Origin: Macrostomum lignano
Taxonomy: Eukaryota
DNA length: 30,510 nt
Reading direction: 5' to 3'
NCBI GenBank assembly: GCA_002269645.1
Contig: NIVC01004945.1
Coordinates: forward strand, 1-30,510
Below, piece by piece: positions 288 through 26,576 of the stretch (its first letter is position 1; every line of letters starts with the position of its first letter). Under the pieces are notes generated by a model. It searched no databases and was not told where the DNA came from. It was given only the letters and a program-made list of their open reading frames with translations. A program made the position numbers and the translations under genes.

Positions 288-2511
288 ATGGGAGACAGGT
301 GGACTGAGAGAGGACAGGTGGACTGAGACGGATACAGGTGGACTGAGACGGATACAGGTGGACTGAGACGATACAGGTGGACTGAGAGGGAGACAGGTGG
401 ACTGAGAGGGAGACAGGTGGACTGAGACGGATACAGGTGGACTGAGAAGGAGACAGGTGGACTGAGACGGATACAGGTGGACTGAGAGGGAGACAGGTGG
501 ACTGAGAGGGAGACAGGTGGACTGAGAGGGAGACAGGTGGACTGAGACGGATACAGGTGGACTGAGAGGAGACAGGTGGACTGAGACGGATACAGTGGAC
601 TGAGAGGGAGACAGGTGGACTGAGACGGATACAGGTGGACTGAGAGGGAGACAGGTGGACTGAGACGGATACAGGTGGACTGAGAGGGAGACAGGTGGAC
701 TGAGAGGGAGACAGGTGGACTGAGACGGATACAGGTGGACTGAGAGGGAGACAGGTGGACTGAGAGGGAGACAGGTGGACTGAGACGGATACAGGTGGAC
801 TGAGAGGGAGACAGGTGACTGAGAGGGAGACAGGTGGACTGAGACGGATACAGGTGGACTGAGAGGGAGACAGGTGGACTGAGAGGGAGACAGGTGGACT
901 GAGACGGATACAGGTGGACTGAGAGGGAGAGACAGGTGGACTGAGACGGATACAGGTGGACTGAGACGGATACAGGTGGACTGAGAGGAGAGACAGGTGG
1001 ACTGAGAGGGAGACAGGTGGACTGAGAGGGAGACAGGTGGACTGAGACGGATACAGGGTGGACTGAGAGGGACAGGTGGACTGAGAGGGAGACAGGTGGA
1101 CTGAGACGGATACAGGTGGACTGAGAGGGAGACAGGTGGACTGAGAGGGAGACAGGTGGACTGAGACGGATACAGGTGGACTGAGAGGGAGACAGGTGGA
1201 CTGAGAGGGAGACAGGTGGACTGAGACGGATACAGGTGGACTGAGAGGGAGACAGGTGGACTGAGAGGGAGACAGGTGGACTGAGACGGATACAGGTGGA
1301 CTGAGAGGGAGACAGGTGACTCAGACGGATACAGGTGGACTGAGAGAAAGGCCGGTACGCAGATTTCTGATTTACCTTGATTTCAAAGCCAAGTTTCAAT
1401 TTTTAGCTGACTCGAACTTGGAACTTAAATTCCATATCGCCGCTTGAATTCCAGCAGCTTTGTAGGCCTCATCACCCTGGCCAGCCTCTGCTGCCTCGGG
1501 CGGCCCGAGACAAGTCGGAGTTTGACTTCATCCTGCTCACCAGAGAGTGGCCCTTCTCCTTCTGCTCGGTGACCTCGGTCTGTGCTGCGGTCTCTGGTTG
1601 ACTGGGGATTCAAGGATGAGGGGGTGAACTAAGGGGTGTGAACTTAGGGAGAGAGTGAACTAAGGGGGTGTGAATTTAGGGAGAGGGTGAACTAAGGGGT
1701 GTGAATTTAGGGAGAGGGTGAACTAAGGGGTGTGAACTTAGGGAGAGAGTGAACTAAGGGGTGTGAACTTATGGAGAGGGTGAACTAAGGGGGTGTTAAG
1801 CTGTAGAGAGGGTGAACTAAGGGGTGTGAACTTATGGAGAGGGTGAACTAAAGGGGTGTGAACTTATGGAGAGGGTGAACTAAGGGGTGTGAACTATGGA
1901 GAGGGTGAACTAAGGGGGTGTGAATTTAGGGAGAGGGTGAACTAAAGGGGTGTGAACTTATGGAGAGGGTGAACTAAGGGGTGTGAACTTATAGAGAGGG
2001 TGAACTAAGGGTGTGAACTTAGGGAGAGGGTGAATTAAGGGGTGTGAACTTATGGAGAGGGTGAACTAAGGGGGTGTTAACCTGTGGAGAGGGTGAACTA
2101 AGGGCCGGTGTGAAACTTTTCGAGACAGTGAACTCGGGTGACAGAATTATTCTTTGTAATTTAAAATGTAAACTATAGCGTGCACCTGCCTGCAAAATTT
2201 AGGAAGCTTCACACGACGTACTTTCTATATGAGGTCATGACCTGATGAACTCAATGGAATCACGCACACATTCGTAGTTCCTCGTGTTAACCCGCAGTGC
2301 AAGCACAAGGAGCTGCTACAGAAAAGGTTCAACATTCATGGACTTTGGTGAGTTCGACTGCGATTTGTTTTTATCAGCGGCCTAAGCGGCCTACTTAAAG
2401 TAGAGTGGTTAATTTCGGAACACCGCTTTTTTCAGGGCCGAGTCCAAAGATTCTCCGTCCAAGCCGCCCATGTTCTGCAACTCCACTGCGTTCAACGAAT
2501 CCGAGCTGGGG
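288..2511 (+). CDS. RNASET2: RNase T2-family gene, exons 1-4: 288-298, 1455-1577, 2298-2347, 2436-2511
   Basis: Spliced translation MGDSSFVGLITLASLCCLGAAR-DKSEFDFILLTREWPFSFCSVTS-CKHKELLQKRFNIHGLW-AESKDSPSKPPMFCNSTAFNESELG: signal peptide, T2 N-terminal FDF..WP..FC motif and CAS I (IHGLW). GT/AG boundaries are phase-compatible. Needs one extra G in the run at 1498-1500. The exon-2 donor could alternatively be at 1569, and its acceptor is a NAGNAG (1455/1458). The symbol is family-level. Confidence 0.85.
291..1346 (+). repeat. 20-bp minisatellite in RNase T2 intron 1, about 52 copies (GGAGACAGGTGGACTGAGAG / GGATACAGGTGGACTGAGAC variants)
   Basis: Direct reading; two unit variants alternate and the array starts inside exon 1. 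Confidence 0.95.
1617..2105 (+). repeat. 31-33-bp minisatellite in intron 2, about 15 copies; each unit holds two GTGAACT subunits
   Basis: Repeated TATGGAGAGGGTGAACTAAGGGGTGTGAACT with small variants. Confidence 0.9.
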
Positions 2512-3319
2512 GTGAGTTGCCTTGTGGCTTTGAGCTGGGTGAGTTGCCTTGTGGCTTTGAGCTGGGGTGAGTTGCCTTGTGGCTTTGAGCTGGGGTGAGT
2601 TGCCTTGTGGCTTTGAGCTGGGGTGAGTTGCCTTGTGGCTTTGAGCTGGGGTGAGTTGCCTTGTGGCTTTGAGCTGGGGTGAGTTGCCTTGTGGCTTTGA
2701 GCTGGGGTGAGTTGCCTTGTGGCTTTGAGCTGGGGTGAGTTGCCTTGTGGCTTTGAGCTGGGGTGAGTTGCCTTGTGGCTTTGAGCTGGGTGAGTTGCCT
2801 TGTGGCTTTGAGCTGGGGTGAGTTGCCTTGTGGCTTTGAGCTGGGGTGAGTTGCCTTGTGGCTTTGAGCTGGGGTGAGTTGCCTTGTGGCTTTGAGCTGG
2901 GGTGAGTTGCCTTGTGGCTTTGAGCTGGGGTGAGTTGCCTTGTGGCTCCGAGCTGGGGTGAGTTGCCTTGTGGCTTTGAGCTGGGGTGAGTTTCCTTGTG
3001 GCTTTGAGCTGGGGTGAGTTGCCTTGTGGCTTTGAGCTGGGGTGAGTTGCCTTGTGGCTTTGAGCTGGGGTGAGTTGCCTTGTGGCTCCGAGCTGGGGTG
3101 AGTTGCCTTGTGGCTTTGAGCTGGGGTGAGTTGCCTTGTGGCTCCGAGCTGGGGTGAGTTGCCTTGTGGCTTTGAGCTGGGGTGAGTTTCCTTGTGGCTT
3201 TGAGCTGGGGTGAGTTGCCTTGTGGCTTTGAGCTGGGGTGAGTTGCCTTGTGGCTTTGAGCTGGGGTGAGTTGCCTTGTGGCTCCGAGCTGGGGTGAGTT
3301 GCCTTGTGGCTTTGAGCTG
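2503..3319 (+). repeat. 28-bp minisatellite GAGCTGGGGTGAGTTGCCTTGTGGCTTT, segment 1
   Basis: Direct reading; begins at the end of exon 4. Confidence 0.95.
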
Positions 3320-4386
3320 CCCGTTGGAAAAGTTATGCACCTGCAGAGGCACAAAAGGTGAGCGAGGTGCACAAAAGAGGCACTTTGGTGGCCTATTTCG
3401 TGTGTGTTTTGGAAATGCACCTGAGTGCACCTTTTATGCCTAAATGTCACCAATATTTTTGAAAAGAGGCATGAAAGGTGTAAAATCGGTGAAGTGGTCA
3501 GGCAGTAGGTGAATTCTCAATTTTGATTGGCTGCGGCGGTAGGGGCAGTAAAGGTGCTGAAGGGGCGCAGAAAGTGCACAAAAGGTGAATTAGAGGTGCA
3601 TAAGGTGTACATGTTGCAGCGTAAATATGTATACAGGTGCATTTCCAAAACACGCTCGAAATAGACCCCAAAGTGCCTCTTCTGTGCACCTCGCTCACCT
3701 TTCATGCCTATGCACGAATTAACGCATTAATAATCAGTAACAAAAAATTAACTGAGAGTTACATACTCGTAAATTGCACGCACAGATCGAACATAGAAAA
3801 GCTTTATTTACACCTATACTAATTGCTGCTATCCCCTTCCTGATCCTGACTAACCACAAAAGTAAGCATTTCCTGTACTGATAAGTTTTAATAACTTTCA
3901 AATACTCAGGAAAAGTTCCGAAAAGTGATGAAAAGCTTTGAATCTGTTTAAAGAATAATAAGGAAAAGTAGCAAAGAACTTTCGCAAGTTGGAACGCCCC
4001 TTGCATTGCCTCTACACCTAAAGTGCCCACTGTGCACCGTTTGTTCACCTTTTGTGCCTCCAATGCACACTGTACACTTTTTATGCACCTCCACCACAGC
4101 GCACCTTTTTCACCTTTCACTCCACCAATGCCCCAATTCCTACTTTGTTCACCTTTTGTGCCTCCAATGCACACTGTGCACCTTTAATACACCAAACTCC
4201 CTATGACACCTGTGCCCCTACCACCTATTTCGTGCCTTATATTCACCATTTGACCCTGCAGAGGCACTCAGGTGAACACGCGGTGCACAAGTGGCACAAA
4301 ATAGGCATAAGAGAGGCGAAAGTGAGGCAGACGGTGTAAAACTCTTCACCTTTCATGCCTACTTTAAAAACTCAAAATTCAACGGG
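3320..4386. mobile_element. Non-autonomous DNA transposon (1067 bp), 7-bp TIR CCCGTTG/CAACGGG, 3-bp TSD CTG; possibly CMC/EnSpm-like
   Basis: CTG at 3317-3319 and 4387-4389; removing the insert restores the satellite unit exactly. No transposase ORF. The superfamily is a guess from the CCC ends and short TSD. Confidence 0.7.
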
Positions 4387-4971
4387 CTGGGGTGAGTTTC
4401 CTTGTGGCTTTGAGCTGGGGTGAGTTGCCTTGTGGCTTTGAGCTGGGGTGAGTTGCCTTGTGGCTTTGAGCTGGGGTGAGTTGCCTTGTGGCTTTGAGCT
4501 GGGGTGAGTTGCCTTGTGGCTTTGAGCTGGGGTGAGTTTCCTTGTGGCTTTGAGCTGGGGTGAGTTGCCTTGTGGCTTTGAGCTGGGGTGAGTTTCCTTG
4601 TGGCTTTGAGCTGGGGTGAGTTGCCTTGTGGCTTTGAGCTGGGGTGAGTTGCCTTGTGGCTTTGAGCTGGGGTGAGTTGCCTTGTGGCTTTGAGCTGGGG
4701 TGAGTTGCCTTGTGGCTTTGAGCTGGGGTGAGTTGCCTTGTGGCTTTGAGCTGGGGTGAGTTGCCTTGTGGCTTTGAGCTGGGGTGAGTTGCCTTGTGGC
4801 TTTGAGCTGGGGTGAGTTTCCTTGTGGCTTTGAGCTGGGGTGAGTTGCCTTGTGGCTTTGAGCTGGGGTGAGTTGCCTTGTGGCTTTGAGCTGGGGTGAG
4901 TTGCCTTGTGGCTTTGAGCTGGGTGTGAGTTGCCTTGTGGCTTTGAGCTGGGGTGAGTTGCCTTGTGGCTT
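4387..4971 (+). repeat. 28-bp minisatellite, segment 2
   Basis: Same unit and orientation as segment 1. Confidence 0.95.
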
Positions 4972-5579
4972 AGTAGAAGGCATGAGGGGGCTTTTGGGAC
5001 AAAATTTTTCACGTCCTCCATAATCCCATTAAATCCATCTATATTATCCCTGACAGAATCAGAAAAAAAGGGGGGTCGCACTCGCTAACAAAACGTCCTC
5101 CATAATCCCATTAAATCCATCCATATTATCCCCGACAGAATCAGAAAAAAGGGGGTCGCACTCGCTCACAAAACATCCTCCATAATCCCATTAAATCCAT
5201 CCATATTATCCCTGACAGAATCAGAGCATAACAGGTGTCCTACTGTTATGCTCTGAGGGTTTATGCTCTGAGCATAACAGCTCCAAATCCACCCATAGCA
5301 TCTTCGAAACAATCAGAAAATAATCTGCATTCTTCTCCCCACATTCAATCCGCAACGTGCTACCAGATCCCTAAGACTTTAAATCCCCTAACCCAGGGTC
5401 CTTACCCTTTGAAAAAAAATCTAAATTTTCTCTAAAAATGTTTCCAGTTGTCTCCCCAGGTTCTTATTACAAAGCGCACGAGCCTAATTACAAGAGTAAG
5501 TACCAATGCAAACTAGAATGCAGCGAGTACATGAGAAAATATTGGCCCGGCGTTGATATCAATGTCCCTAATATTAATC
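4972..5579 (+). repeat. Left terminal inverted repeat (608 bp)
   Basis: Reverse complement of 20934-21541; identical wherever compared, including homopolymer lengths; first mismatch at 5580/20933. Confidence 0.95.
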
Positions 5580-5629
5580 TAGCTCTCCAAAGACACTGGT
5601 TCAGAACACAGCTGAGAAAATTTGCTTAG
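5438..5629 (+). CDS. Small TIR-initiated ORF, left copy (63 aa), unknown function
   Basis: TAAAAATG start context shared with other element genes; N-terminal 47 aa identical to the right copy. Confidence 0.4.
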   Translation: MFPVVSPGSYYKAHEPNYKSKYQCKLECSEYMRKYWPGVDINVPNINLALQRHWFRTQLRKFA

Positions 5630-6467
5630 TCATGCTAGTAAGAGTTTGGCTCTGCATGAAAGGTACAATCGTTGATGGTAATTTCACTTAAAACAAAGAA
5701 AAGAAAGAAAGCAGACCTTATTTATTAATTGTTAAATAAATACCGTACCGTAATACGGTACCGAAAATACCGTATTGTAGTTGGAGTTTATTCTATGAAG
5801 CTTTGAATTTTTATTTATCGAAATTTTGTAATAAATAGAATAACAATGTTTTACATAAACAAAAACAAGAATGATTATTAATTGGTGGTACTTCTAAAAT
5901 TGTCTACAAGTTGCTCTAAATTTATATTAGAAGGAAGGTTATCTAACAAACCTACAGTATCCTCTCTACATATCCCACATTTTCTCGTGTTATTACTTGA
6001 AGTAAGAATTTCTAGTCATATTACTTATAAGTAGGCTCTAAACAACTTGACGCCATTCTGGACTGTCTCGGAAAAACCACACATGATTTTCTCTAACGTG
6101 TTAGAAAAAATCATGTACACACATCATTTTCTCTAACGCGTTAGAAAAAATCATGTGCGCCCAGTACGTTCAAGGCCGTCTCCCCAGCTGGCCTTGGGTA
6201 CCTCGGTTTCAGAGAAATCTCTCTCCCACGCCAGTGTACGCTTTCTGTTACACTCCGCTATTCTTAACACACAACCTTGGCGACAACCTCTTCATGCCTT
6301 TCTTGCCTTGCCCCCCCCCCTAGTGGTATCTAGTGGTAAGTGATATCTTACCACTTCTCTCTACACTCTATGAAAATATTAATACTTATGAAATCTTAAC
6401 ACAACAAACAATAACCTAAAGGACTTGTCAATAAAATGCCTGAATAAATATTAGAGTGTTGTCACCG

Positions 6468-7329
6468 TCAGCACGTCTTCACTTTTTTGTCCTCGTCCTC
6501 ATCTTCATCATCTTCCTCGTTGGCCTCTGAAAAAAAGCAACGTTTTAAGAATTATCAATTTAAATTTAATAGAATTAAAACTGTGAAGCAATTACTTACC
6601 GTCTTCGTACCAGGCTTGGATTGTCTTTTCAAATTCACCTTCCATTGTAAGGAAGGCAACACTTTCGTGCTGCATTCTCAGCAGCTGGTCAAATCTGGTG
6701 TCGGTGGCAGCCTTCTTGCGGATTGGAGCGCTATAGTTCAACACACGCCCCATTGAATAACCCGAGAAGATCAGCCCCGGGAACTCCAGGCACAGCCGGT
6801 AATACTTCACATAATCACTCACTTTCCGAATGGTTACGTCAAACACACGAGCTAGCTCGCGTTCGTCCATACCAAACTTTGAGCTTAAATAGTTGACTCT
6901 TCTTCCGAACTCGAATTGTAAGATCGCCTTAAGTATTGACACATTGTCAATGCCAACTATCACTTGTTTGGTGCCCTCGATAATCGATGTTCTCGACAAA
7001 TCAAACAACTTTTCTCCGACGAAATTAATCGAAGAGAATAGTGACTGTAGACTGACTCGCACGCCGCGATCTTCGATATCCTCCAATTTTTCCTTTATTT
7101 TTTCAATTACGGTTTCCTCTTGTCTATTCTCTTCTTTCTTCTCCGATACGCTCTTCCGTTTGTCTGGCAGACCGTTTAACTTTTGCAAGCTTGCTTGAAG
7201 CCTCATCAGCTCTTCATTGGGAAAGTCTCGGAGGCGAGCTCCCAGCAGCGATCGATCTTTTTTTAATAACGATGTGGTCATCTCCACAACGTCTGAGATG
7301 CGTCTTTGTTTCTCTTTAGACAAAGCCAT
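6468..7329 (-). CDS. Putative HTH DNA-binding protein, spliced (7329-6600 + 6526-6468), about 262 aa with acidic tail
   Basis: HTH-like segment ERELARVFDVTIRKVSDY. Donor G|GTAAGT at 6599 and acceptor TTTTTTTCAG at 6527 join in frame to give EANEEDDEDEDEDKKVKTC*. TATAAAA at 7400-7394. Confidence 0.7.
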
Positions 7330-7393
7330 GCTGGGATTTCAATAGTATATACAATCGAATGTGTGTGTAGTGTGTTTAGCGTTTTATTTTTGC

Positions 7394-7400
7394 TTTTATA
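7394..7400 (-). promoter_or_regulatory. Candidate TATA box of the HTH gene
   Basis: TATAAAA on the minus strand about 65 bp upstream of the ATG at 7329. Confidence 0.45.
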
Positions 7401-7766
7401 CAGCCGGCTAGGGTGGAAATGAAAGTTTCCAGAACGTAGTTAGCAAACAAGAACACACGGTGTACAAGCGGAGGACCAGATCGCTAAATATGAAAACGAG
7501 CTAGCACCCAGACGTCACCCAGACGTCACCCAGACGTTAACTAGCTTCCGAGCGATCGATTCCCTCCACCCGTTTGAAGTCCCTGTACATTTCCTTGGTT
7601 GATTGGGGATGTCAAAGCGGAAAGGAAAGCACGCGTGGAACTTGTACATTCGCAAAATCGATTAGAGGGCTGCGCTCCCTCAACAAATAGCAGTTACCCC
7701 ACCCTTTTCAAAATGCACCTGTTGCGTTTGGCTAGGGCTGAGAATAATAGTTAAGCCCTTCCCGAC

Positions 7767-8255
7767 TCAAGCGCCTCTCTCTACCCCCAGCTCTTTCAGC
7801 AGTCTTCCTAGTACCTCGTTTGGAGCGCACAAAATAAACCCAGCTCCCTCTCTCCCCGTGCAACCGCCCTCTCTCCCCAAACACCCACCCTCGCCGTCGA
7901 TCCCCAACCCCAGCTTTTTCTTACCAAAAATAACCGCCTTGACTAATTTCCGAGCAATCGACTCACGAAATCCGCTTGAAGCCCCTATATTGTCTAGTCT
8001 CTTAAGCATTTCTTTGTCCCAGCGATTCTTCTCCTCAGGAAAATCTCTATATTTAACGTCGTGCCACATGCAGACAGAGTCTAGCTCGTTCACAGGCTCA
8101 TGCCCAGGATTTGGATTATCGTTTGTATCTAACTGTATTTCAAGTGGATTCAAAGGCCCGCAATATTTGTACCCGGGAAGTGTCCAGCCTTTGTTTGGAT
8201 GAGGAAGCTTTTCTATCAGTCCATGTGAATCTAACTTACCACCAGAGCGTTGCAT
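7767..8255 (-). CDS. Parvovirus VP1u-type phospholipase A2 domain protein (162 aa)
   Basis: LPGYKYCGPLNPL...EPVNELDSVCMWHDVKY matches the parvoviral LPGYKYLGPGN...PVN..D.....HD..Y pattern, including the HDxxY catalytic motif. Confidence 0.9.
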   Translation of the reverse strand: MQRSGGKLDSHGLIEKLPHPNKGWTLPGYKYCGPLNPLEIQLDTNDNPNPGHEPVNELDSVCMWHDVKYRDFPEEKNRWDKEMLKRLDNIGASSGFRESIARKLVKAVIFGKKKLGLGIDGEGGCLGREGGCTGREGAGFILCAPNEVLGRLLKELGVERGA

Positions 8256-8285
8256 TATTTTATTTTAAATTTTCTTTTTAAAAAA

Positions 8286-9321
8286 ATGACAGATCAGAAA
8301 CTTAAAAAACTCTACTACAGCGACAAAGGATTCTTTGTAGGAAAAAATGCAGTCACCAAACTCGCAGAACTAAGTAAGGAACCAAAAGCTAAAGTAGAAA
8401 AGTGGCTCTCTAAGCAGGCTGTCTTTCAAGTCTATTTCCCACCTGTTATATTTACAAGACCTCACTTTAGCATCTATAAACCTAATGAGGCGCACCAAGC
8501 AGACTTATTGTTTCTCCCCAATGACTCGGGCTACAAGTATGCTCTCACAATTACAGACGTTGCTTCCAGATATAAGGAAGCTCGCCCACTCAAGACGAAG
8601 AAGTCAGAGGTTGTTGCCAGCGCACTCCAAGATATTTATAAAAACTCACCCCTTAGTTACCCTGAAATCTTTATGACGGACCCGGGTAAAGAATTCATGG
8701 GTGCAGTGAAATCACTTCTACATAAGCATGACACAAAAATTCGCTATGGCAGAACAAACTTGCACAGAGACCAGGCTTTTGTGGAAAGATTCAATCTAAC
8801 TCTAGCCAAGAGGCTATTCACTAAGCAGACAGCTGAGGAGCTGAAACTAAAAAGTGGTCAGTACTATTCAAAATGGACAGACCGGCTCCCCACTGTTATA
8901 GAGCAACTGAACAATGAAGTCACACGTATGACTGGATTGAAACCATCCCATGCAATTAAACAAGACACTGTCAAACTTAAGGCAACTCATAGAACAGACA
9001 ACAACACTACAACCCCACACAACACACACAACACAAAACACACCTCGAACTACCCTAAGCTTCCAGGAGTTGAATCACCATACATACTGACAAACTCTGA
9101 GTTTCTACGCTTTTTATATCTACCTGGAGAGCTAGAGAAAGACACCAAAAGAAGAGCTACAGATCCATACTTCAGCCTTGATGTGCATAAAATAGACAGA
9201 CATTTTACCTCCGACTCCGGTGATTTACTTTTTATCTCAAGCCTTTAACCCTAAATCCCCCACGCGGTCATTCACTAGAGCTGAACTCCTAGTGATACCA
9301 GCTGACACAGAAATTAATTAA
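8286..9321 (+). CDS. int: Retroviral-like (rve) DDE integrase; C-terminus frameshifted at about 9229-9248
   Basis: ADLLFL, ITDVASRY, MTDPGKEF and FVERFNLTL motifs; AAAAAAATG start at 8286. Adding one T and one A restores FYLKPLNPKSPTRSFTRAELLVIPADTEIN*. Confidence 0.93.
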
Positions 9322-9337
9322 AATATTAAAATAAAAA

Positions 9338-9784
9338 ATGACAAAGATTGAAACCAGAACCATCAATAAACTCAATAAAATCATTGAATCAAAGAAACCA
9401 GGTATTATATCAATTAAAGGTGCCAAAGTAAAAATCGATCCCACGCAGCAAATACTTCAGTGTAATGAGCAAAGACACAGCATCACAGATGAAAAGTCAG
9501 GAGGAATCCTACCATTAGCAGCTCTTATTCCGATCATTGCAGGCGCTGTAAGTGCCGCAGGTGGTGTAGCTGGAGGTGTAGCAACTGCTGTTAAAGCTGG
9601 TAATGATAGAGCCCACCAGCTGGAATTGCAAAAGATTGCAAGAGATAAAGGTATAACAATTAAGGCAGGAGAGGGCTGCCCGGATTTTGATGATTGTGAG
9701 CATGAAAATTCTGTAAGCAAGTCTGACATTGTCAAAGCAATCATGACACTACACAATGCTGGGTTTACAATAATGCGGATGTGA
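9338..9784 (+). CDS. Adenovirus pX-like putative virion protein (148 aa)
   Basis: SGGILPLAALIPIIAGAVSAAGG resembles the adenoviral pX C-terminus RGGILPLLIPLIAAAIGA. Confidence 0.7.
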   Translation: MTKIETRTINKLNKIIESKKPGIISIKGAKVKIDPTQQILQCNEQRHSITDEKSGGILPLAALIPIIAGAVSAAGGVAGGVATAVKAGNDRAHQLELQKIARDKGITIKAGEGCPDFDDCEHENSVSKSDIVKAIMTLHNAGFTIMRM

Positions 9785-20838: not shown

Positions 20839-21075
20839 CTACAACTGCCTTATAACTTCAGCAAAGTTATAATAGCTGTCAAAATTGTTAATGACTACTC
20901 CGTGTTTTTCAAACCAGTGAGATTTAAGTGCTTGATTAATATTAGGGACATTGATATCAACGCCGGGCCAATATTTTCTCATGTACTCGCTGCATTCTAG
21001 TTTGCATTGGTACTTACTCTTGTAATTAGGCTCGTGCGCTTTGTAATAAGAACCTGGGGAGACAACTGGAAACAT
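20839..21075 (-). CDS. Small TIR-initiated ORF, right copy (78 aa), unknown function
   Basis: Starts in the right TIR and runs 95 bp beyond it; A-run start context. Confidence 0.5.
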   Translation of the reverse strand: MFPVVSPGSYYKAHEPNYKSKYQCKLECSEYMRKYWPGVDINVPNINQALKSHWFEKHGVVINNFDSYYNFAEVIRQL

Positions 21076-21541
21076 TTTTAGAGAAAATTTAGATTTTTTT
21101 TCAAAGGGTAAGGACCCTGGGTTAGGGGATTTAAAGTCTTAGGGATCTGGTAGCACGTTGCGGATTGAATGTGGGGAGAAGAATGCAGATTATTTTCTGA
21201 TTGTTTCGAAGATGCTATGGGTGGATTTGGAGCTGTTATGCTCAGAGCATAAACCCTCAGAGCATAACAGTAGGACACCTGTTATGCTCTGATTCTGTCA
21301 GGGATAATATGGATGGATTTAATGGGATTATGGAGGATGTTTTGTGAGCGAGTGCGACCCCCTTTTTTCTGATTCTGTCGGGGATAATATGGATGGATTT
21401 AATGGGATTATGGAGGACGTTTTGTTAGCGAGTGCGACCCCCCTTTTTTTCTGATTCTGTCAGGGATAATATAGATGGATTTAATGGGATTATGGAGGAC
21501 GTGAAAAATTTTGTCCCAAAAGCCCCCTCATGCCTTCTACT
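20934..21541 (-). repeat. Right terminal inverted repeat (608 bp)
   Basis: Reverse complement of 4972-5579. Confidence 0.95.
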
Positions 21542-22684
21542 TGGCTTTGAGCTGGGGTGAGTTGCCTTGTGGCTTTGAGCTGGGGTGAGTTGCCTTGTGG
21601 CTTTGAGCTGGGGTGAGTTGCCTTGTGGCTTTGAGCTGGGGTGAGTTGCCTTGTGGCTTTGAGCTGGGGTGAGTTGCCTTGTGGCTTTGAGCTGGGGTGA
21701 GTTGCCTTGTGGCTTTGAGCTGGGGTGAGTTGCCTTGTGGCTTTGAGCTGGGGTGAGTTGCCTTGTGGCTTTGAGCTGGGGTGAGTTGCCTTGTGGCTTT
21801 GAGCTGGGGTGAGTTTCCTTGTGGCTTTGAGCTGGGGTGAGTTGCCTTGTGGCTTTGAGCTGGGGTGAGTTGCCTTGTGGCTTTGAGCTGGGGTGAGTTT
21901 CCTTGTGGCTTTGAGCTGGGGTGAGTTGCCTTGTGGCTTTGAGCTGGGGTGAGTTGCCTTGTGGCTTTGAGCTGGGGTGAGTTGCCTTGTGGCTTTGAGC
22001 TGGGGTGAGTTGCCTAGCGGCTTTGAGCTGGGGTGAGTTGCCTTGTGGCTTTGAGCTGGGGTGAGTTGCCTTGTGGCTTTGAGCTGGGGTGAGTTGCCTT
22101 GTGGCTTTGAGCTGGGGTGAGTTGCCTTGTGGCTTTGAGCTGGGGTGAGTTGCCTTGTGGCTTTGAGCTGGGGTGAGTTGCCTTGTGGCTTTGAGCTGGG
22201 GTGAGTTTCCTTGTGGCTTTGAGCTGGGGTGAGTTTCCTTGTGGCTTTGAGCTGGGGTGAGTTTCCTTGTGGCTTTGAGCTGGGGTGAGTTGCCTTGTGG
22301 CTTTGAGCTGGGGTGAGTTGCCTTGTGGCTTTGAGCTGGGGTGAGTTGCCTTGTGGCTTTGAGCTGGGGTGAGTTGCCTTGTGGCTTTGAGCTGGGGTGA
22401 GTTGCCTTGTGGCTTTGAGCTGGGGTGAGTTGCCTTGTGGCTTTGAGCTGGGGTGAGTTGCCTTGTGGCTTTGAGCTGGGGTGAGTTGCCTTGTGGCTTT
22501 GAGCTGGGGTGAGTTGCCTTGTGGCTCCGAGCTGGGGTGAGTTGCCTTGTGGCTTTGAGCTGGGGTGAGTTTCCTTGTGGCTTTGAGCTGGGGTGAGTTG
22601 CCTTGTGGCTTTGAGCTGGGGTGAGTTGCCTTGTGGCTTTGAGCTGGGGTGAGTTGCCTTGTGGCTCCGAGCTGGGGTGAGTTG
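21542..22684 (+). repeat. 28-bp minisatellite, segment 3
   Basis: Same unit and orientation; resumes in register after the TSD. Confidence 0.95.
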
Positions 22685-24704: not shown

Positions 24705-26576
24705 TTAAGTTGCCGCCCGCTTGCCGTACTGCAGCGGCGGGAAGTTGACGCGGAAGCTGACGTGGGAGGCGCACAGGGTGGTCAGCAGCTCCAGCAGCTC
24801 GGCCAGCGAGATCACGGAGGACCCCATCCAGAGGCCGAGGATGCCGCCGAGATGTGACAGCAGGTCCACGGTGGAGTAGCTGCGCTCCTCCGCGATGTAC
24901 ACCACGCTGAGGCTGAACGGGTACACCTGCACCCTTAAGAAGTGCCTGGAGATGAACTTCTGCACCTGCAGGCAGTGCGACTCGTTCGCGAACCTCCTGC
25001 TGCTGTCCATGCGGGTGCAGTCGCCGGGCCGCAGCCGCCGGGCCCGCACGGCTCTCACCACAGCGGGCAGGCGGGCATCGGGCAGGCTGGAGTTGGCGAA
25101 CTGCTTCAGGTACGAGTCCAGGATGCCCGAGAAGGTCTGGAAGATCAGCCTGGCGTCGTAACGGCCGTGCAGGTGGCTGGCGGAGTCGGGCAGCTCGGAA
25201 GTGAAGATCTGAAACTGGTAGCTCGATGAGGAGCACTGGTCCTCTGCGTGCTCAGCCTCCTGCACCAGCTGCTCGGCCAGTCTCAGGTGGCAGCGCAGCG
25301 ACTCCCAGTTGCTCCACAGGTCCGGCATGTTGAGCCTGACGAGCTCCCTGCAGGCTGAGAAGTTCGCCGCCTTGAGCAGCCCATCGCACAGGTCGCTGAT
25401 TCTCCGCTGGAATCTTCGGAAGCCGCCGCTCTGAGCGTCGAAGAGGTCGGCGCAGTGCCGGCTCGGCCTCAGGTGCGTCGGCAGGCAGACGGGGCCGGTG
25501 GGGAGGCAGCCGCACCTGGCCTGCACCTGCGCCGCCTCCTGCCACTCCAGCCGGTCCGCCAGGCTGGTCTTGTAGGTCCTCACCGTGGGCACCAGCGGGT
25601 CCCGAACGGAGAACTCCGAGGCCTCCTCGCACGGTCTTTGCGGCGTGTTGAGCAGCTGAGTTCGCACCTCCCGGAGCCCGATCTTCGTCTCGTGGCTGGT
25701 GGCAGCCATGATGGAGTCCTCGCTCACCCTCGGCATCGAGTCGGGCTCGTGCGCCGTCACCAGCACCCCGTTCGTCTCCAGACCCGTATCCGTTGAGCCG
25801 TCCAGCATCGCCGGGTCGCTCCAGTTGCGGAAGTGCGGGTCGGAGGCTGGCGAGTACATGATGAGGCTCAGGCCATCGTGCGGCCTCTCCTGGCTGCCCT
25901 CGGGGCGGAAGGTGAAGCAGTTGCCGTACTGCCGGTGGTAAAAGGCCGAGAACTGCGAGGGCTGGCACAGCGAGCCGCAGAACTTGCACTGGATCAGCAG
26001 GTCCTGCACGGACAGCCCCAGGGCGGTGGCGTTTCCAAGAAAGTGCAGCCCCGGCACCGACTTGGGCAGCTCGAAGACGCCGTGCGAGAGCGTCAGGAAG
26101 CTGCTGAGGTCCGGGATTCGCTTCAGCGCGTCGGGGTAGCCCGCCCTGAAGAAGCGCATCTGCCAGGCCTCGCACACGGTCACGCTGGGGAATCTGAAGT
26201 CGTTGAGGATCTCCCGCGTTGAGGACTGCAGTGGGAACTTGTAGTACTCAGACACCTGCTGGAACACGTGCAGGCCCAGGCAGCTCAGCATCACGGCCAG
26301 GACCGCCGCCCACGCGACGCCGCAGGGCGTTGAGCCCACGTGCCACAGGCCGTGGATTGCCGCGGTGTCCAGGAACTTCGCCACCGTCCGCCTGCGATGG
26401 CGGGACAACGCCAGCTGGCGGCACTTGGCGCCACCAACGACGGAGGCTGGCGCGGCTGGGGCGCGGGACGGCCTCGTGGATGCGTGGACCGCCGCCGACT
26501 CCTCCCGCAGCACCCACACAGGCGGCTCCTCCAGCGGGATCTGCACCGCTCGCTGCGACTCCGAGCAGTCGGCCAT
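24705..26576 (-). CDS. Intronless DEG/ENaC (amiloride-sensitive) channel subunit, 623 aa from the first ATG
   Basis: Pre-TM1 IHG, TM1, FPSVTVC, YGNCFTF, Cys-rich ectodomain and TM2 LGGILGLWMGSS. The reading frame stays open upstream to 26702 without an ATG. Confidence 0.93.
   Translation of the reverse strand: MADCSESQRAVQIPLEEPPVWVLREESAAVHASTRPSRAPAAPASVVGGAKCRQLALSRHRRRTVAKFLDTAAIHGLWHVGSTPCGVAWAAVLAVMLSCLGLHVFQQVSEYYKFPLQSSTREILNDFRFPSVTVCEAWQMRFFRAGYPDALKRIPDLSSFLTLSHGVFELPKSVPGLHFLGNATALGLSVQDLLIQCKFCGSLCQPSQFSAFYHRQYGNCFTFRPEGSQERPHDGLSLIMYSPASDPHFRNWSDPAMLDGSTDTGLETNGVLVTAHEPDSMPRVSEDSIMAATSHETKIGLREVRTQLLNTPQRPCEEASEFSVRDPLVPTVRTYKTSLADRLEWQEAAQVQARCGCLPTGPVCLPTHLRPSRHCADLFDAQSGGFRRFQRRISDLCDGLLKAANFSACRELVRLNMPDLWSNWESLRCHLRLAEQLVQEAEHAEDQCSSSSYQFQIFTSELPDSASHLHGRYDARLIFQTFSGILDSYLKQFANSSLPDARLPAVVRAVRARRLRPGDCTRMDSSRRFANESHCLQVQKFISRHFLRVQVYPFSLSVVYIAEERSYSTVDLLSHLGGILGLWMGSSVISLAELLELLTTLCASHVSFRVNFPPLQYGKRAAT

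Follow-up and report, generated by a model that had tools for sequence, protein, structure and literature searches.

A spliceosomal intron in an HTH gene of a Macrostomum lignano Polinton adds an acidic tail

An HTH gene inside a full-length Polinton of Macrostomum lignano contains a short spliceosomal intron, the removal of which joins a long first exon in frame to a second exon that encodes an acidic tail. The gene was found in a window of 30,510 nucleotides (the whole stretch of DNA analysed here; contig NIVC01004945.1, assembly GCA_002269645.1), the relevant features of which are collected in Table 1. A spliced intron in a Polinton gene is unusual for such elements, which are usually annotated as intron-free ORFs. 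We consider it probable that the gene is a constitutively spliced, host-transcribed accessory regulator of the Polinton; its fold and its dimeric state are predicted only.

Table 1. Positions of the HTH gene, of its parts and of neighbouring features in the window
Feature	Position	Strand	Remarks
HTH gene, coding exon 1	6600..7329	-	730 nt, 243 codons plus one base; covered by X1, X2 and X15 contigs, partly by X6
Spliceosomal intron	6527..6599	-	73 nt, GT-AG, phase 1; in-frame stop two codons in
HTH gene, coding exon 2	6468..6526	-	acidic tail of 19 residues with a short basic cluster at its end
Lys/Arg-rich linker, NLS candidate	7135..7161	-	residues 57-65, read from sequence; most relatives are Lys-rich at these columns; putative function
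Long helix, predicted antiparallel homodimer interface	6874..6993	-	residues 113-152; score 0.76, best of 3 controls 0.00
KorB/ParB-like HTH domain (predicted)	6673..6933	-	residues 133-219, HTH helices 156-163 and 167-182; model pLDDT 91-96
TATA box candidate TATAAAAG	7393..7400	-	64 nt upstream of the ATG; AATAAA follows at 7388
Three tandem 11-nt repeats with two TGACGT sites	7505..7537	-	upstream of the gene; candidate sites from sequence
PLA2-like gene	7767..8255	-	PF08398, E 8.8e-14; upstream of the HTH gene, same strand
Full-length Polinton/Maverick (adintovirus-like)	4972..21541	.	16.6 kb; TIRs, 6-bp target duplication, core-gene matches

The order of exon, intron and exon given by the original prediction, with its coordinates, proved exact on rechecking. 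The intron opens with the donor GTAAGT, contains a T-tract and closes with a CAG acceptor, and thus combines the GT-AG ends and pyrimidine tract of the U2 type. Its G+C content is 22%, compared with 45% in exon 1, and stop codons occur in two of its three frames; candidate branch points are weak and lie 28-32 nt from the acceptor. An ATTAAA hexamer at 6565-6570 (minus strand) could be an intronic polyadenylation signal and is expected in DNA so rich in A+T. Exon 2 is open solely in the frame that had been proposed, and the ORF encodes 245 amino acids when unspliced and 262 when spliced. Splicing does add an acidic tail, as predicted: the most acidic 15-residue window near the C-terminus holds 13 Asp/Glu residues in the spliced form and 5 in the unspliced one. 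Gene predictors had already found the spliced 262-residue protein, exon 1 plus exon 2, as UniRef100_A0A1I8GRG2 (P0002); the entry is labelled Macrostomum lignano and bears no Polinton label. By itself the donor/acceptor pattern is weak evidence: when the element was resampled 200 times at first order, 35% of the resamplings held one such pair or more. It is the contig evidence that decides.

This evidence comes from four of 24 listed sequencing runs (X1, X2, X6 and X15), in the form of assembled contigs, from which rare variants are dropped. The status of X1, X2 and X6 as RNA is a program's guess, no run being on record as RNA, and X15 is of unknown kind and DNA-like. In X2 and X6, which belong to two studies, position 6526 is joined to 6600, skipping exactly 73 nt with CT..AC ends, and depth is zero in the intron bin 6532-6578. 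X2 spans the whole ORF with two overlapping contigs, with one and three listed differences, respectively. X1 contributes two contigs with the junction, in the form of loose ends spanning it, and one unspliced contig of 132 nt at a depth of 7.4. The X15 contig covering 6250-7322 keeps the intron without any listed difference inside it; because two variants on the exon 2 side are common to this contig and the spliced X2 contig, that type of copy has the intron in its DNA. The 6600/6526 junction check suggested with the original prediction, run on these contigs, finds an intron that is removed exactly in X2 and X6 and retained in X15, and the gene is not one that is transcribed and never spliced. 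The use of this intron locates transcription and splicing of the HTH gene in the host nucleus.

Expression does not prove function, since a broken and a rearranged copy are also transcribed. The former is represented by a second X2 contig (6855-6977, depth 13.4) with six differences, including a stop at codon 131. The latter is met at 6769, where the spliced X6 contig leaves the element; contigs of X1 and X6 exit there, share the next 16 bases, which are foreign to the element, and differ from then on, and this rearranged copy seems to be spliced to an outside exon. A high-depth match at 6490-6527 in X1, X6 and X15 was considered as a paralogue and rejected, because it is another acidic gene that matches there through low complexity. 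The contigs, from which rare variants are dropped, show no trans-splice branch at the CAG that precedes the ATG.

The Polinton setting of the gene is secure: the element that encloses it is bounded by TIRs of 639 nt (4972-5610 and 20903-21541) that are 98% identical. The AGTAG termini and the 6-bp target duplication are those of a Polinton/Maverick, the duplication being derived from the repeat unit of a 28-nt satellite that flanks the element (2503-3319, 4386-4971 and 21542-22600). A Pfam scan of 18 ORFs identified an integrase, PLA2, an adenovirus pX-like stretch (Adeno_PX), pPolB, a protease and a DJR capsid protein, with E values of 3.5e-10 for the rve integrase (PF00665) and 6.4e-9 for the DJR major capsid protein (PF21738), two hallmarks of these elements. 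Matches to PF03175 (2e-4) and PF00770 (2.6e-4) fall below their own cut-offs because the genes are in pieces; in the ORF map the polymerase, the ATPase and other core genes are split into overlapping frames or by single stops. A putative packaging ATPase is suggested by Walker A and B-like motifs, seen by eye in the broken ORFs at 16637-15806, which gave no Pfam match. Introns were rejected as the cause of the breaks in the core genes: frames overlap there or single stops intervene, and no other strong GT-AG pair turned up in the scan. The HTH gene sits in the interval from the left TIR to the PLA2X/integrase genes. Between it and the TIR there are two tandem imperfect palindromes of 40 nt (6078-6157), candidate sites for a dimeric HTH protein. 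The element also holds a 21-nt tandem array that is open in several frames (16554-17058), directly upstream of the ATPase gene; outside the element, an intronless and G+C-rich (67%) ORF at 24705-26576 (minus strand) encodes a host ENaC/degenerin channel (PF00858).

On the promoter side, TATAAAAG at 7400-7393 is the sole site of its kind in the element. With 6 differences, the 52 nt around it (7363-7414) recur in a 389-nt X15 contig that is unrelated in the rest of its sequence, a likeness that hints at conservation. Contigs cross the candidate TATA box unbroken, those of X1 and X2 reaching 7566 and that of X6 reaching 7413; possibly the transcript starts further upstream, or read-through RNA of the PLA2-like gene, with the AATAAA at 7388 nearby, overlaps the candidate box. 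The TGACGT sites in the tandem repeats are presumably ATF/CRE-like. At 7537-7650 depth is far higher and loose ends occur in all four runs, which points to a stretch common to other genomic loci. The start context does set the gene apart, as had been claimed: only one A is present in positions -6 to -1, which makes it Kozak-like, compared with A-runs of 4-6 A in seven of the eight other correctly placed starts, the eighth of which probably belongs to a broken ORF and would be an internal ATG there. The ATPase start, misplaced by 3 nt, was left out of the comparison.

Sequence searches of Pfam, PHROGs and the PDB assigned the HTH protein to no family, and the HTH-like leads from the ESM Atlas, including DUF3102 at 0.89, were weak. 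Structure prediction, one of the checks initially suggested, yielded a confident fold with a putative KorB/ParB-like HTH (pLDDT 82 from a 17-row alignment; six near-identical rows gave only 52). The model runs from three N-terminal helices through the basic linker, a long helix and a 40-residue helix to the HTH (156-182), into which the latter leads; more helices follow, then a hairpin and, last, the disordered tail. Residues 1-59 are modelled as a three-helix bundle that resembles generic bundles only, and residues 246-262, the tail from exon 2, have low pLDDT. The best structural match is KorB (8qa8; Z 7.1, rmsd 3.1, 80 aligned residues), followed by KorB, SopB, Spo0J, ParB and VirB. ParB-family DNA-binding domains account for 8 of the top 11 rows, and the Z of 7.1 is middling, in a range rated common; Foldseek found no match for the model in PDB or BFVD at E<=0.001. 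The ParB/Srx CTPase domain is absent from the N-terminus, and a ParB Pfam match from all 11 family members compared, so that the protein is at most ParB-type in the action of its HTH and not a ParB. By eye it has neither the LxCxE motif with CK2 site nor the paired CxxC by which the available part of PMC8502044 defines the adintovirus Oncoid.

The HTH protein is probably dimeric, judging from the predicted pairing of two copies of residues 60-245. The prediction runs share at least 82% of the contacts, with a partner pLDDT of at least 69. In calibration, 21 of 30 solved microbial pairs and none of 23 microbial single chains came up to the mark for the dimer score; for eukaryotes the counts were 17 of 29 and none of 30, respectively.

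A profile search of 1.84 billion representatives returned 13 matches at E<=0.001, to which a second search added four. The family consists of three multi-copy subfamilies in M. lignano and of unnamed proteins from sequencing-run and metagenome assemblies. One metagenome scan produced eight loci with about four distinct sequences on contigs of 1.6-3.7 kb. At one of these loci (L008), the C-terminal part of a pPolB (E 4e-6, pairwise) and a fragment of a capsid protein (PF21738, E 1.6e-6) have a degenerate relative downstream of them; the other seven have no recognisable Polinton gene in their short flanks, and the ORFs of the element gave no tblastn match to the eight loci at E<=0.01. L006/L007, a family member at a probability of 97.9, carries a candidate in-frame GT-AG intron of 256 nt (528-783 in L007), read from sequence, in the N-terminal linker; its position differs from that in M. 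lignano, and it is absent from L008. L001-L005 have a pyrimidine tract and CAG directly before the start. An intron at the same position as in M. lignano was considered for L001/L002 and rejected, no donor being present at their stop. The scans of viral contigs found no relatives, and longer, fused relatives were not found in what was a weak test.

Splicing of the HTH gene is probably routine. The initial proposal that it switches the tail on and off is not borne out: X2 and X6 contain the spliced form only, the unspliced X1 contig is unspecific, and acidic tails are common in the family. A C-terminal patch with at least seven Asp/Glu residues in a 15-residue window occurs in 8 of 14 scored relatives, by a threshold chosen after the table had been seen and with five of the eight positives forming one clade. 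In a paralogue from M. lignano that is 271 aa long and 51% identical, an acidic tail starts at the same column. The other six relatives are without a strong acidic tail, and one of them stops directly after the HTH; P0012 is tailless and ends a few residues past the Gly at the column of the 6599-6527 intron, as the unspliced reading would. An NLS-like role for the tail, also proposed at the outset, loses ground to the basic linker in exon 1, which is the better and more conserved candidate; the basic end of the tail fits no more than a minimal NLS consensus.

A regulated isoform switch resembling that of the P element, in which retention would leave a tailless 245-residue dimer acting as a DNA-binding repressor and splicing would produce the active form, seems unlikely. 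X1 does hold both forms, a retained minority could have been missed, rare variants being absent from contigs, and the in-frame stop just inside the intron would spare the folded core and the dimer helix. The intron is also the last one, which leaves no later junction that would trigger decay of the transcript. The Drosophila P element offers a precedent, as described in the available part of PMC7776569. Against such a switch stand the exclusively spliced X2 and X6, the strong consensus of the splice sites and a basic patch that is already present in exon 1. At 6769, moreover, X6 goes on into other sequence but the loose end of X1 enters an acceptor-like stretch, a difference that suggests pre-mRNA or DNA in X1.

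In the reading that we prefer, a constitutively spliced accessory regulator, host Pol II would transcribe the gene and the intron would be used constitutively; the 262-residue protein would be the standard product, and the 245-residue form is probably just read-through of unprocessed RNA. The long antiparallel helix is predicted to dimerise the protein and to present two KorB/ParB-like HTH units; since the predicted dimer has two such units, it would most likely bind palindromic DNA, probably in the element, with the palindromes at 6078-6157 and the TIR as candidates. The protein would then regulate transcription of the element, and its disordered acidic tail may be an activation or cofactor-binding patch, at somewhat less than even chances.

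It is distinctly unlikely that the gene is instead host-derived cargo, a cellular intron-bearing gene captured into the stretch from the left TIR to the integrase in the manner of nematode Maverick proteases and kinases. Its location is that of the nematode cargo region (10.1101/2022.07.12.499685, in the text available), the Kozak-like start and candidate TATA box set it apart from the core genes, and seven of the eight related loci have no Polinton gene in their short flanks. However, the searches placed the protein in no named cellular family, its predicted fold is like prokaryotic and plasmid HTH domains, and its family has three multi-copy subfamilies in M. lignano. The L008 relative adjoins remnants of a polymerase and a capsid gene, and the exon G+C content of 45% matches the element, not the host channel gene. 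About as unlikely is DNA binding without a regulatory role, by which the protein would tether, condense or partition the genome in the style of ParB/KorB or of viral episome tethering, with the tail as charge modulator: the nearest folds are partition proteins, a dimer is predicted and chaperone-like DNA-binding proteins can also bear acidic tails, but the ParB CTPase domain is absent, the expression signals are unlike those of capsid and packaging genes, and the gene is transcribed from integrated copies.

A wider proposition, which we regard as unlikely to hold, is that a family of dimeric HTH regulators of prokaryote type has been overlooked in animal Polintons. These would be the only part of the element with host-like expression, with a TATA promoter and spliceosomal introns gained at differing positions by lineage; they would be transcribed when the element is integrated, and would act as a latency or activation switch, which the last intron, if retained in the manner of the P element, might tune.

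Overall, the analysis adds an RNA-supported spliced accessory gene of a Polinton, found in a model animal for which transgenesis is available. It also points to a definite candidate for a regulator, the HTH family of which is unclassified and linked to animal Polintons. The surprise is moderate, since public annotation already contained the spliced protein and intron-bearing cargo genes of Mavericks have been published. The NCBI paralogue models stem from transcriptome-based annotation, according to the available part of PMC5730564; the gene names of the paralogues are absent from the main texts searched and from three supplementary files of that paper. No paper on the HTH gene or on Polinton expression in Macrostomum was found in a search outside of which most subscription papers lie, and the available portions of 10.1101/2024.03.25.586562, 10.1101/2023.08.22.554363, PMC11296320, PMC12220804, 10.1101/2022.07.28.501842, PMC11161782 and 10.1101/2024.01.15.575659 contain nothing on such a gene.

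Compared with known systems, the element shares its TIRs, 6-bp target duplication, rve integrase, pPolB, protease, putative ATPase, DJR capsid and PLA2-like and pX-like genes with animal Polintons/Mavericks and adintoviruses, as far as these are described in the accessible parts of PMC8097293 and PMC8502044. Intact vertebrate Mavericks are reported to be intron-free (available text of PMC8097293, which cites Kapitonov and Jurka 2006), whereas in the M. lignano element one accessory gene, from a family without a Pfam or PHROGs match, has an intron that RNA supports. Oncoid and conserved genes without names are listed in the adintovirus paper (PMC8502044), the available part of which has no passage on splicing. 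The helical HTH of about 80 residues, as modelled, superposes on the DNA-binding domains of KorB, ParB, SopB and VirB (Z 5.7-7.1, 9-13% identity); unlike KorB and ParB, the M. lignano protein has no N-terminal CTPase, is predicted to dimerise via the helix before the HTH and ends in an acidic tail.

The third intron of the Drosophila P element is likewise a last intron with an early stop, the retention of which spares the DNA-binding part, as retention would here; according to the available part of PMC7776569, retention in the P element is regulated and removes a third of the transposase, whereas in M. lignano it would remove 19 residues and its regulation is hypothetical. Spliceosomal introns inside Polinton-like elements are also found in the Maverick-Polinton-like proviruses of dinoflagellates, which bear introners (PMC11957031, in the part available); those introns are transposon-made and numerous, whereas the M. 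lignano gene has just one intron, which is short and for which no repeat family is apparent in the window. A parallel in arrangement is provided by nematode Mavericks, in which intron-bearing cargo lies at the same place, in the interval from the left TIR to the integrase, and the core genes are intronless (accessible text of 10.1101/2022.07.12.499685). The nematode cargo, however, consists of host-type proteases and kinases in a G+C-rich block, whereas the M. lignano gene encodes an HTH protein of no known host family that has one relative beside Polinton core genes.
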